Assembly (NCBI GenBank): GCA_038231435.1
Contig: JBBRLJ010000003.1
Location: 64,001 to 128,000, forward strand
DNA from: Planctomycetota bacterium
Lineage (GTDB): Bacteria > Planctomycetota > UBA11346
Length of the DNA: 64,000 nt
Reading direction: 5' to 3'
Shown here one piece after another: positions 40,801 to 43,800 of this stretch. The first letter of the stretch is position 1; every line of letters begins with the position of its first letter. The position numbers are program-made.

Positions 40801-43800
40801 TGGCTCTGCACCGTCGCCGGCTCCTCGCGCAGCACCTTGGTCATCACCTCGGTGCCGTTCTTGCCGTCGAAGGGGATGACGCCGGTGACGGCCTGGTAGA
40901 ACGTCGCACCCAGGGCGTAGATGTCCGAGACGTTGTTCGCATCCTTGGCGTTGCGGATCTGCTCGGGCGGCATGTACGCCGGCGAGCCCATGGCGATGCC
41001 CTGCATGGTCAGGCCTCCGCCCGCCGCATCGTTGTCGACCTGCTTGGCGAGGCCGAGATCGGCGAGCTTGGCGTTCTTCTTGTCGTCGATCAGGATGTTC
41101 GCCGGCTTGATGTCGCGATGGATGATGCCTTCGCCGTGGATGTACTCGAGGGCTTTGGCCACCTGCATGATGTAGGTGACGGCCTCACGCCATTCGAGCT
41201 TGCCGGCTTCCTCGATCACGCCCGCGAAGGTCGTGCCGTCGATGAACTCCATGGTCAGGAAGTGGACGCCGCGGTCCTGTCCGCAGTCGTAGACTCCGAC
41301 CACGTTCGGATGCTTGATCTTCGCGCAGAGGTTGGCCTCGCGCTGGAAGCGGGTGACGATCTCCTTGTCGGCCGCGGCCTTGCTGGAGAGCATCTTGATC
41401 GCGACCTTGCGCCCGACCGACACCTGCTTGGCCTCATAGACCACGCCGAGCGCTCCCGCGCCCAAGCGCTTGATGAGCCTGCACCCTCCGATCTCCTGGT
41501 TGACCAGCTTGTCCTCGGCCGCCGCGGTATTGGCCGCGATGGTCATCTGGCGCTGGCAGTAGGGACACGGCACGGTCCGGCCGACCAACTTGGCGTGGGC
41601 GCGGAACTCATGGTTGCAGAATTTGCAGGTTTGGAGGAAGGCGTCGGTGGTCACGATGTATGGTCCTGCATGAGATCAGCGAAGTTCCTGCGAGCCGGCT
41701 TTGCCCATCCGTGGGTTGCGGCCGGTGGGCAAGCCATCATGGGCGCCTTTCCACCGGTTCCAGAAGGGATACCGTGCTGGAACGATGGCAGATGCAGCAG
41801 ATCCGTTCCGCCTGTCCGCGGAGACCCCAGCCGAGGGCCGGCCGCTCGACCAGGCGAGCGCGGTAGCGGCGGCGCTCGGTCATCGCGTCGGTGACGCGCG
41901 CCTGCTGTCGCGTGCCTTCACCCACGCCAGCCGCTGCGGCGCCCAGGCGAGCCTGGCCGAGAAGCTGCGCGACGCCAACGAGCGGCTCGAGTTCCTCGGC
42001 GACGCGGTGCTCGGGGCAGCGATCGCGCAGCTGCTGTTCGAACGCTTTCCCGACGCCGACGAGGGCCAGCTGTCGCGCCTGCGCTCGACCCTCGCGAGCC
42101 GCGCCACGCTCGCGCGCGCGATCGAGGCCATCGGCCTGCTGCCGTACTGCCTGGCCGGCGCGCAGATGGGGCCGCGCCACGATGCCTGGCCGGACTCGGT
42201 GAAGGCCAACCTGATGGAGAGCGTCCTCGCCGCCATCCATCTCGACGGCGGTTGGGACCCGCTGCGCGTCGCGGTGGCGCGCCTGCTCGCACCCTGGATC
42301 GATGATCCGGAAGCCGGACGCCGCGACGCGCGCATGCGCCTCCAGGAATGGAGCCTCGAGCACCACAAGCGCCTGCCCGACTACACCTGCGAGCGCAGCG
42401 GTGGCAGCGATCACCAGCCCGAATTCAGTTCGAGCGTGACCGTCGCGGGCCGTACCGCTGACGGGCGCGGCACGAGCCGCCGCCGCGCCGAGGCCGCGGC
42501 GGCGGAGGCGTTCCTTGCCGACATGCCCGACCATGGCGGCGCTGTTGGCACGGAGGGCACGGAGAACGCTGCCCAGCCCAGGAGCACCGATGCCGATTGA
42601 AGGCCTCGCCGATCCGAAGCTGCATCGCCTGTGCGTGCGCTGCCGCAAGTGGTTCAACCCTGACGAGGGCGTGCTCGACTTTCCCTCGGCCACCGGGCCG
42701 ATCGGGTTCATCATGGGCATGTCGGCGCGCGTCGCCGACGACGAATCGAAGATGAAATTCTACTGCCTGGCCTGCCACGCCACGCGCAAGAAGCGGAAAT
42801 CGAGCGCCTTGACCACCATCCTGAGCATCACCGCCGCCGCCGGCGCGATCGGCGGGCTGTGGTACTCCGGCCAGCTCGAGCGCTGGTTCAACGCCTTGAT
42901 GAGCGGCATGTGAGCGAATGTCGGTAGGCCTCCGCCGACACGGCTGAGCCCACCTGCCGCCGGCGGCGTCAGGCGGCCTTGCCGAGCGCCTCGCTGCGCT
43001 TCATCAGCGCACAGGTCATCCATCCGCCGAGGCCAAGTGGCGCCGCGATGACGGTGGTGAGCACGCCGATGGGCCACGCCAGCGGCAGGATCAGGGCCAC
43101 CAGGCCGACCACCGTCTGCGCCAGGCCGGTGCGATCGGGCAACACCCGCGCGCCGAGAGACCGCGCGCTGGTGGCCAGACCGGTGGCGACCGCGAAGAAG
43201 GCGACCGCCCCCAGCAGTGGGCGTCCTGGCACGATGCCCAGCACGATCAGCGCCCTGAAGCCGACCGCCACCACGGCCAGCACCGCGAAGCCGACCAGGA
43301 AGGATACCACTGGACGCTCGGCGAGGCGCAGGGTGCCGAGGCGTTGACGATCTGGAGCGACCATCGACATGAGCAGCGCGATGCCGGCGAGACTCGCCAG
43401 CACATCCATGTGCAGCGCATGATGCTGCTCGAGCAGCATCATCGCCCGCAAGGCGCGGTGCTGGAGCGTGGGAGCGGGATCGGCGCCGGGCGCGTTTTCC
43501 GCGGCCGCGAAGAAGTCGTCGATGGCATCGCTCATGGGTTGATCCTCCGGTGATCGTTGATCGTCAATAGCACAACGGCCAGCACCGCCGCCGCACCGCA
43601 CATCTCCACGAGCAGGTCCACAGCAGTACCAGCGTCGACGAGCCGCGACCAGCCGATCGCCGACAGCGGATCGATGGGCACCAGCAGCGACGCGACGGCG
43701 GCGACCCCGGCGGCGAGCCACCACGAGACGCTGGCCGGGATCGGGGACATGGATGCGGGCACGAGCGCCATGACCGCGGCGGTGAACGCCGGATCGGGCG

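Follow-up and report, generated by a model that had tools for sequence, protein, structure and literature searches.

Era is regarded as a near-universal and near-indispensable assembly GTPase of bacteria. Its site on the small ribosomal subunit lies by helix 45 and the 3' end of 16S rRNA, between head and platform, and in many bacteria its gene sits in the order rnc-era-recO.

The closest described cases of Era loss come from a review of the GTPase, which in its passages on escape from "Era addiction" ascribes this escape only to extremely genome-reduced groups (PMC10582724). Section 5 of that review names S. aureus, S. pneumoniae, M. tuberculosis and some B. subtilis strains as bacteria in which era is not essential, and a figure legend names Planctomycetota, as patchy only. 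Work on factor loss in the Candidate Phyla Radiation (CPR) contrasts CPR with "non-CPR" bacteria, in which it calls the factors highly conserved (PMC12641178); its main text mentions neither Planctomycetota nor Chlamydiota nor Verrucomicrobiota. The source data of Fig. S4 in a 2023 paper (PMC10632474) give era a share of 0.55 in Planctomycetia and 0.25 in Phycisphaerae, and rimM 0 in both. That table counts era and rimM among the genes that E. coli needs but that are poorly conserved or not conserved at all in PVC classes, implying that Era is scarce and RimM lacking throughout the group; the main text of the paper discusses only division genes and contains neither "Era" nor "GTPase". Supplements on V. 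spinosum contain no era, rimM, rimP or rbfA terms, and those on P. limnophila carry rbfA, ybeY and rsgA only in lists. The first-pass annotation of the DNA studied here named one paper containing both "Era GTPase" and "Planctomycetes", an unrelated one; the review legend and the source table show that the literature is not silent. The core fact is already in print in passing, while its extent and explanation were not previously given. We add here the extent of the absence, the lineages that hold Era, the co-absences, a deletion relic and negative results on compensation.

The rnc locus and the Era complement of its genome

The window, a stretch of 64,000 nucleotides from a planctomycete genome (5.2 Mb in 108 contigs, 87.6% complete), contains an RNase III gene in a 299-aa frame, with a Ribonuclease_3 domain at residues 94-184 followed by a dsrm domain at residues 212-274 (Table 1). 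Neither era nor recO was found 3' of rnc. The place of era in an rnc-era operon is occupied instead by a 107-aa ORF whose first 11 bases lie within rnc. The ORF list and the Pfam assignments bear out the arrangement first described for this locus. The 107-aa ORF found only itself among 5.8 billion proteins and gave no significant match in any of five genomes of the same genus or family (best E 0.08). We reject it as an Era substitute: it is an orphan, is not conserved and is no relative of Era. Further downstream, the 251-aa ORF adjoins an ECF sigma factor gene and may encode its membrane partner.

Table 1 Features around rnc in the window.
Feature	Coordinates	Strand	Pfam matches (E-value)	Position
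Ser/Thr protein kinase gene	40527..41654	-	Pkinase (6.3e-57)	divergent, upstream of rnc
rnc, RNase III	41785..42600	+	Ribonuclease_3 (3.2e-20), Ribonucleas_3_3 (1.3e-18), dsrm (3.8e-10)	
107-aa orphan ORF	42590..42913	+	no Pfam family	
251-aa ORF	42969..43724	-	no Pfam family	convergent downstream neighbour
ECF-type sigma-70 factor gene	43855..44544	-	Sigma70_r2 (5.1e-15), Sigma70_r4_2 (2.4e-9)	

We searched the whole genome with the Era model TIGR00436 and found no full-length match over the curated cut-off of 116.25 bits. The best match, inside Der, scored 74.1 bits over model positions 3-131. Der's two G domains supplied the best matches overall, and no match extended beyond model position 163. 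A planctomycete Era profile of 298 positions (A1), built from 11 planctomycete and 3 other Era proteins, gave 18 matches, none past position 179, and a profile of the KH half (A2) gave none in this genome. The Pfam KH_2 model passed its cut-off only in ribosomal protein S3. Its weaker matches fell in NusA, PNPase, RNase Y, a PNPase fragment and an actin-like protein and were rejected as signs of Era, and no frame joined a GTPase domain to a C-terminal type II KH domain (KH_2, with its GxxG loop).

Neither of the usual era neighbourhoods, rnc-era-recO or ybeY-era, is present in this genome: ybeY lies between prfC and a gene for a membrane protein, and the order nusA-infB-rbfA is retained with no rimP ahead of nusA. 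These results uphold the earlier statements that the genome has no era gene, that matches to the Era model are confined to GTPase domains and never reach the KH domain, and that KH_2 passes only in S3. The genome is only 87.6% complete, and the case for its lack of Era rests on its relatives.

Era across the Planctomycetota

We searched 401 Planctomycetota genomes, scoring in each only the 6 to 10 candidates that ranked highest at first look, and found full-length Era in 30 (TIGR00436, E <= 4.8e-55); it was missing from 371. The next-best E-value, 5.4e-26, came from Der; a naive tally of matches over the TIGR00436 cut-off (310 of 401) is an artefact of adding both Der G domains. A divergent Era might have been missed by a strict E-value, a concern attached to the first-pass claim. 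The KH-half profile, run with the same limit on candidates, returned the same 30 genomes, together with one deletion relic and two marginal matches. Both a very long-branch Era (G094, E 4.8e-55) and a relic of 56 positions were picked up.

Era is missing from 221 of the 243 high-quality genomes, and 94 of the 103 families include no holder. All 20 single-contig genomes outside the Brocadiaceae (f32) lack it, as do all 48 genomes of the window's own class, where up to 41 candidates, nearly all, were scored per genome. The claim that Planctomycetota as a rule live without Era holds in a sample 13 times larger than the one on which it was made. The same search detected Era in 100 of 101 Bacteroidota genomes, TIGR00436 was positive in all 10 bacterial control genomes, and RbfA, YbeY and RpoB were recovered from 100, 98 and 98 of 101 Planctomycetota genomes. 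Era is absent from the window's genome, from its whole uncultured class and from roughly nine in ten of the sampled Planctomycetota, and we consider it very likely that these genomes truly encode no protein in which a GTPase domain is joined to a KH domain of the Era type.

TIGR00436 figures in bacterial marker sets that are in wide use. Even closed planctomycete genomes reach just 86-91% on the completeness scale, so that estimates based on markers are probably too low for Planctomycetota.

History of the gene and maturation of the 30S subunit

Era occurs in the anammox families and in about eight further families, small and uncultured; the holders lie dispersed over an RpoB tree. In the class that contains the Brocadiaceae, Era occurs only in f32, f105 and f106 (70/76), against 0/56 in the other eight families. 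One genome, G092, carries a relic, a 112-aa frame in which an internal deletion has brought the P-loop of Era straight up against the end of the KH domain. We propose that Era ceased to be necessary early on, either in the phylum or in the PVC group at large, and was then lost many times, with the relic representing one loss caught in progress.

It is possible, if on balance doubtful, that a single early loss took place instead, in the ancestor of the phylum or in a PVC ancestor, and that horizontal transfer later returned Era to the lineages that now hold it. The scatter of holders on the RpoB tree can be explained by 9 events if only gains are allowed, and takes at least 14-21 if only losses are, and the confinement of Era to three families of the Brocadiaceae-containing class fits the same history. 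So does the finding that G388 has Era while its sister G125 and four other genomes of the family do not, and the neighbourhood of era differs in every holder lineage, never adjoining rnc, ybeY or recO. The source data of Fig. S4 in PMC10632474 point the same way, with no era in Chlamydiia or Opitutae (0) and a share of 0.33 in Verrucomicrobiae.

For the anammox clade, a donor resembling Bacteroidota, Ignavibacteriota or WOR-3 is suggested by 54% identity to Bacteroidota and WOR-3 Era, compared with 32-47% to other planctomycete types, and by grouping with Bacteroidota and WOR-3 Era on a tree (96/91). The outgroups of that tree were, however, chosen for likeness to anammox Era, which biases it, and an AU test of whether planctomycete Era forms a single clade gives a borderline, indecisive result (p 0.0498). 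The f58-type and f85-type Era proteins have no close donor, since their relatives above about 50% identity are all planctomycete, and any transfer of these types would have to be ancient. Four families (f78, f11, f40 and f58) share one Era clade, and it is this type that is decaying in G092, which shows that Era was held vertically there and then lost. Early dispensability with repeated loss remains our preferred history.

We next consider the other 30S assembly factors. RimM was found in none of 101 Planctomycetota genomes with two models, so that its reported presence in one of five class genomes was not reproduced; RimP (RimP_N) was found in 17 of the 101 and in none of five sampled genomes of the window's own family, in line with the 0 of 5 first reported for class genomes. 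RimM is wholly and RimP mostly missing from this sample, which bears out the general statement on both. RsgA is present in 76 of the 101 genomes, and RbfA is kept irrespective of Era. The window's genome has Der, Obg, HflX, RbfA, YbeY and RsgA, as had been listed; KsgA, named with them, has a full-length match of 158.6 bits that falls under the curated cut-off of 171. Era, RsgA, RimM and RimP are jointly absent from at least 17 of the 101 genomes.

These presences and absences do not obey a simple rule. Complementarity of Era and RsgA is contradicted by Era holders without RsgA (G010, G032 and G062; three holders have it) and by at least 17 Era-less genomes that also lack RsgA. Era and RimP are likewise not linked: G040 and G067 have both, anammox bacteria have Era without RimP, and 15 RimP holders have no Era. 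Unlinked rRNA genes show no correlation with Era, with linked genes in the Era holder G032 and, among Era-less genomes, linked genes in G135 and G008 and unlinked ones in G001 and G043.

An altered Era target can be rejected as well. The window's own assembly contains no 16S gene. Five 16S genes, four from Era-less closed genomes and one from an Era-holding member of the Brocadiaceae, match the whole model (positions 1-1533), and their 3' ends are identical over the Era site. The 3' end is unchanged in all four Era-less closed genomes, indicating that the target of Era is still there.

Late 30S maturation in these bacteria may run on RbfA, YbeY and a KsgA-like methylase, which are kept almost everywhere, with a contribution from RsgA, often in two copies, in the three quarters of genomes that have it. 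Era would then no longer be needed in the lineage to chaperone the 3' minor domain of 16S rRNA, just as some model strains stay viable when era is deleted. We have middling confidence in such compensation by redundancy, with no dedicated Era substitute; it is an argument from absence, and we found no positive sign that the kept factors have taken over. Slow growth offers a weak rationale for the loss: the anammox bacteria rank with the slowest-growing of all and have nevertheless kept Era.

A dedicated substitute that has escaped recognition, lineage-specific and either non-homologous or beyond the reach of profiles, would act on the 16S 3' end and displace the function of Era; we regard this as unlikely. 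The unchanged Era-binding end in the four closed genomes speaks for it, and the genomes (at least 17 of 101) that lack Era, RsgA, RimM and RimP are of normal size and would otherwise make do with a very thin set of known tools. Room for such a factor also exists among the 108 essential, phylum-specific P. limnophila proteins of unknown function listed in PMC10632474. A shallow search nevertheless gave no candidate. The ORF after rnc is not conserved, the weak KH matches are PNPase, RNase Y and NusA, and nothing suggestive of a substitute was found around ybeY or nusA-infB-rbfA. An extra 300-aa MMR_HSR1 GTPase of the window's genome (contig C16, locus L004) is also rejected: it is confined to the window's own family, where G012 (53% identity) gives the sole full-length match, while the four genomes of other families give G-domain matches only. 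It is encoded by a gene overlapping the end of another one that, by eye, resembles glutamyl-Q tRNA synthetase.

Finally, that Era is present and was overlooked is highly improbable and already largely refuted: most genomes are bins, the phylum-wide search looked at few candidates in each, and the eggNOG-based table in PMC10632474 has era in a higher share of Planctomycetia than our analysis does, but single-contig genomes, high-quality genomes, two independent profiles, a near-exhaustive search of the class and the positive controls all run against missed genes or divergent sequence.

Overall, we favour, with moderate confidence, a real absence of Era in which the kept factors carry out late 30S maturation. 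A bolder and rather improbable version holds that Planctomycetota, perhaps with the whole PVC group, have a 30S route without Era, RimM, RimP and in some cases RsgA, in which a lineage-specific factor acts at the Era site. If true, Era would be functionally displaced, beyond mere dispensability, in bacteria that can be cultivated and mutated.

Comparison with other Era-less bacteria

According to the review cited above, Dependentiae, Chlamydia and most CPR bacteria miss era lineage-wide while keeping Der, Obg and the ribosomal core, and their losses are tied to extreme genome reduction and simplified ribosomes (PMC10582724). The Era-less Planctomycetota are alike in the pattern of loss and retention, including the lack of era in complete genomes. 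They differ in genome size: the sampled genomes span about 2-12 Mb, with Era-less ones of up to 12.3 Mb (G104) and closed Era-less ones of 3.1-9.5 Mb, and the window's own genome is far from extreme reduction. The four Era-less closed genomes have a full-length 16S rRNA with its 3' end kept. A large-genome, free-living phylum in which most members lack Era, all those sampled lack RimM and most lack RimP contradicts the rule that such losses follow genome reduction.

Factor loss in CPR is similar in that era is patchy by clade and rimM and rimP are nearly absent (PMC12641178). In CPR, according to the same source, era and rbfA complement each other, whereas planctomycetes retain RbfA regardless of Era. 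The loss of ftsZ and other genes in Planctomycetes (PMC10632474) offers a parallel within the phylum, in that most members lack a gene that E. coli cannot do without.

Viable era-deletion strains of model bacteria, as described in the review, also make 30S subunits with their remaining factors (PMC10582724). Those strains are sick laboratory mutants, whereas the Era-less state of Planctomycetota is natural and long-standing, and is combined with the lack of RimM and usually of RimP. Planctomycetota thus provide natural Era-null backgrounds, some of them cultured and tractable, in which to ask what Era is needed for.

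The rnc locus and the Era search in its genome

ORF order, a Pfam scan and a search for relatives agree with the first-pass annotation that RNase III is followed by an unknown protein instead of era-recO. The 107-aa ORF behind rnc has no relative except itself among 5.8 billion proteins, and no significant match in five of five same-genus or same-family genomes (best E 0.08). Era-recO is thus absent 3' of rnc, and an orphan ORF occupies the usual place of era.

Features of the rnc locus and other genes discussed (G000, genome of the window; G092, a sampled genome; C, contig; L, locus)
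Feature	Position	Strand	Remarks
rnc, RNase III, complete	window 41785-42600	+	ribonuclease III domain, double-stranded RNA binding motif
107-aa ORF	window 42590-42913	+	no Pfam family; overlaps last 11 bases of rnc
Ser/Thr kinase gene	upstream of rnc	opposite	
ORF	downstream of 107-aa ORF	opposite	no assigned family
ECF sigma factor gene	downstream	opposite	
KsgA-like methyltransferase, full length	G000 C62:6996-7784		158.6 bits, curated cut-off 171
Second KsgA-like methyltransferase, full length	G000 C14:103382-104128		102.1 bits, curated cut-off 171
Extra 300-aa GTPase	G000 C16, L004 1057-1959	+	MMR_HSR1 only domain
Era relic, L207	G092 C497:2446-2784	+	112-aa open frame

The assembly of this genome (108 contigs, 87.6% complete) yields 14 matches to the Era family model TIGR00436 at E <= 10; the top score is 74 bits, below the cut-off of 116, and no match extends past model position 163. 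Frame reading and a Pfam scan identified these as the GTPase domains of Der, HflX, Obg, MnmE and IF2, as previously listed, together with YchF, FeoB and a 300-aa protein whose sole domain is a GTPase domain. The Der frame carries two G domains and a KH-like domain of its own. A profile that we built from 11 planctomycete and three other Era proteins (298 positions) gave 18 matches, none past position 179, so that the KH half of Era is unmatched. These searches confirm that the genome has neither era nor an Era KH domain. Ribosomal protein S3 alone exceeds the KH_2 cut-off, as reported earlier; NusA, PNPase and RNase Y follow below it as weaker matches. PNPase is encoded in full on contig C25 and a second time as a fragment on C106 (1156 bases), which probably derives from contamination of the bin or from a strain variant within it.

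Distribution of Era in Planctomycetota

We searched an even sample of the phylum (401 genomes from 103 families, 243 of the genomes being of high quality) twice, scoring the best 6 or 10 first-look candidates per genome. Among these candidates, full-length Era (model positions 1-266 or more, E <= 4.8e-55) was found in 30 of 401 genomes, and the next E-value, 5.4e-26, comes from Der. The 310 genomes nominally over the TIGR00436 cut-off are an artefact of summing the two Der G domains. A second profile, restricted to the KH half, matched the same 30 genomes (E <= 7.6e-47, best candidates per genome scored); its further matches were a partial one in G092 and two of marginal significance (E 1.4e-3), which lie in unrelated long frames. 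Era is present in 22 and absent from 221 of the 243 high-quality genomes; 20 of the 23 single-contig genomes lack it, and the three holders all belong to Brocadiaceae (f32). The class of the window comprises a single family with 48 uncultured genomes, and none of the 48 yielded Era when nearly all first-look candidates, up to 41 per genome, were scored. The same search detected Era in 100 of 101 genomes from the phylum of a Bacteroidota genome, and Era was found in 10 of 10 bacterial controls; within a 101-genome planctomycete subsample, RbfA was found in 100, YbeY in 98 and RpoB in 98. The absence is real and is the rule within Planctomycetota, and the earlier claim to that effect holds on this larger sample (371 of 401 without full-length Era). 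Seven single-contig genomes (G008, G135, G171, G176, G188, G205 and G351) score just 86-91% complete, which fits marker sets that expect era, rimM and other genes the phylum lacks.

Family f32 is Brocadiaceae, with Era proteins 71-94% identical to those in records that carry the names Brocadia, Jettenia, Kuenenia or related ones; it keeps Era in 17 of 17 sampled genomes and in 45 of 47 in a search of its class. That class also holds Era in f105 (24/28) and f106 (1/1), and its other eight families have none (0/56 genomes). Further holders in the 401-genome sample are f85 (4/4), f92 and f58 (2/2 each), f11, f40 and f64 (1/1 each), f78 (1/2) and f72 (1/6). All planctomycete Era sequences are canonical, with the G motifs and the KH GxxG loop. 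The era neighbourhood differs in each holder lineage and never includes rnc, ybeY or recO; one era adjoins genes for a DUF1570 protein and a Ser/Thr kinase. We take DUF1570 to be a planctomycete-typical family, which would speak against contamination. One 20-contig bin, G145, contains two differing full-length rpoB genes (C2:432719-436438 and C3:342186-345875) that are sister rows on the tree, and may combine two related organisms; the era gene of this bin is on C3.

Era holders are scattered on a single-gene RpoB tree (FastTree) of 77 planctomycete rows and three outgroups. The rows represent each family in the 101-genome sample by about one genome; all Era-holding families were added deliberately, and families lacking a long RpoB match were omitted. 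Nine changes are needed, at least seven of them forced by well-supported branches. Losses alone would number 21 (14 with weak branches collapsed), and gains alone nine. On the Era tree, the anammox group lies beside Bacteroidota, Ignavibacteriota, WOR-3 and Deferribacterota, and among the other planctomycete sequences those of f92 pair up, those of f85 form a group, those of f78, f11, f40 and f58 share one clade, and two stand alone on long branches. When all planctomycete Era was constrained to one clade, the AU test gave a borderline p of 0.0498, a value biased because the outgroups were selected by similarity to anammox Era. Above ~50% identity the f58 and f85 types have only a few relatives, and every one of these that is named is from Planctomycetota or a "Brocadiia" bin; diverse phyla follow at 40-47%. 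This list shows no sign of recent transfer of either type.

The G092 frame fuses the P-loop-bearing N-terminus of Era straight to the final 50-odd KH residues; its BLASTP alignment covers residues 6-47 and 234-286 of Era, which leaves an in-frame deletion of ~185 residues. Its P-loop variant is that of the f78/f11/f40/f58 clade. The frame is a deletion relic of Era, so that Era loss is still in progress.

Ribosome assembly without Era

The absence of RimP and RimM noted in the first-pass annotation extends well beyond this genome. RimM was found in 0 of 101 genomes with either TIGR02273 or PF01782 at E <= 0.01 (10 of 10 bacterial controls), and RimP_N in 17 of 101 and in 0 of 5 of the window's own family, where nusA-infB-rbfA is intact in G000 and the gene preceding nusA is unrelated to rimP. 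Era absence is accompanied by absence of RimM and mostly also of RimP. RsgA is encoded by 76 of 101 genomes, ~30 of them with two full-length copies, which lie at separate places (for example G008:C1:7620388-7621164 and G008:C1:228103-228849); it is missing in three Era holders, G010 and the Brocadiaceae G032 and G062. At least 17 of 101 genomes lack Era, RsgA, RimM and RimP together, including closed G001, two-contig G068 and 100%-complete G041. The window's genome does encode RsgA, and RbfA (in nusA-infB-rbfA), YbeY, Der, Obg and HflX are likewise kept. Retention of KsgA, also claimed earlier, stands in that a full-length gene is present, but its score is just below the curated cut-off.

In four Era-less closed genomes and one Era holder, the 16S genes match the whole bacterial model and share one 3' end sequence containing the Era-binding site. 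Linkage of the rRNA operon showed no correlation with Era presence: 16S has no 23S within 1.5 kb in closed G001 (L109) and G043 (L110), and 16S and 23S are linked at L106, L107 and L108, directly in G008 and with two intervening tRNA genes in both G032 and G135.

Of the readings considered, dispensability of Era in Planctomycetota has the best support, which comes from the factors kept and from the bacteria that PMC10582724 ("GTPase Era at the heart of ribosome assembly") lists as viable after era deletion. Late 30S maturation would then be carried by RbfA, YbeY, the KsgA-like methylase and usually RsgA. Suppressor relations link era, ksgA and rbfA.

It is also possible that a hidden substitute does Era's job. 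As candidates we rejected the 107-aa orphan, which matched only itself among 5.8 billion proteins; the weak KH matches, which are other proteins (NusA, PNPase, RNase Y); and the 300-aa GTPase, which is family-restricted (53% identity in G012, no full-length match in four other-family genomes). The N-terminal part of this GTPase is TrmE_N-like by eye and the MnmE helical domain is missing; its start overlaps the end of an upstream ORF (62-1060), glutamyl-Q tRNA(Asp) synthetase-like in appearance. No candidate survived among operon neighbours around ybeY and nusA-infB-rbfA.

Source data for Fig. S4 of PMC10632474, on essential genes of P. limnophila, give class-wise conservation of E. coli essential genes: era has 0 in Chlamydiia and Opitutae, 0.333 in Verrucomicrobiae, 0.55 in Planctomycetia and 0.25 in Phycisphaerae; rimM has 0 and obgE 1 in all five, and der 1 in four and 0.833 in Verrucomicrobiae. 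The main text treats ftsZ, does not mention Era or GTPases, and leaves the era and rimM rows without comment. Its 0.55 for Planctomycetia exceeds the much lower share in our sample; our guesses are that proteins were assigned too widely to the orthologous group, or that anammox genomes were counted as Planctomycetia. PVC phyla are absent from the text of a 30,000-genome survey of biogenesis factors (PMC12641178), and a literature search on Era, RimM and ribosome assembly in Planctomycetes returned nothing on point beyond PMC10582724 and PMC10632474. The core fact is therefore already in print, in passing in a figure legend of PMC10582724 that gives Planctomycetota as patchy for Era, and implicitly in a table. 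Novelty is low since Era absence was noted before and represents no new category; what had not previously been worked out is how far it extends, which lineages hold Era, the co-absences, and the conflict with the statement that Era is lost only in genome-reduced bacteria. Era-less Planctomycetota are an under-appreciated natural exception, approachable by experiment and of moderate interest. According to PMC10582724, Era is lost only in the extremely genome-reduced Dependentiae, Chlamydia and most CPR, a statement that its absence from most Planctomycetota contradicts.
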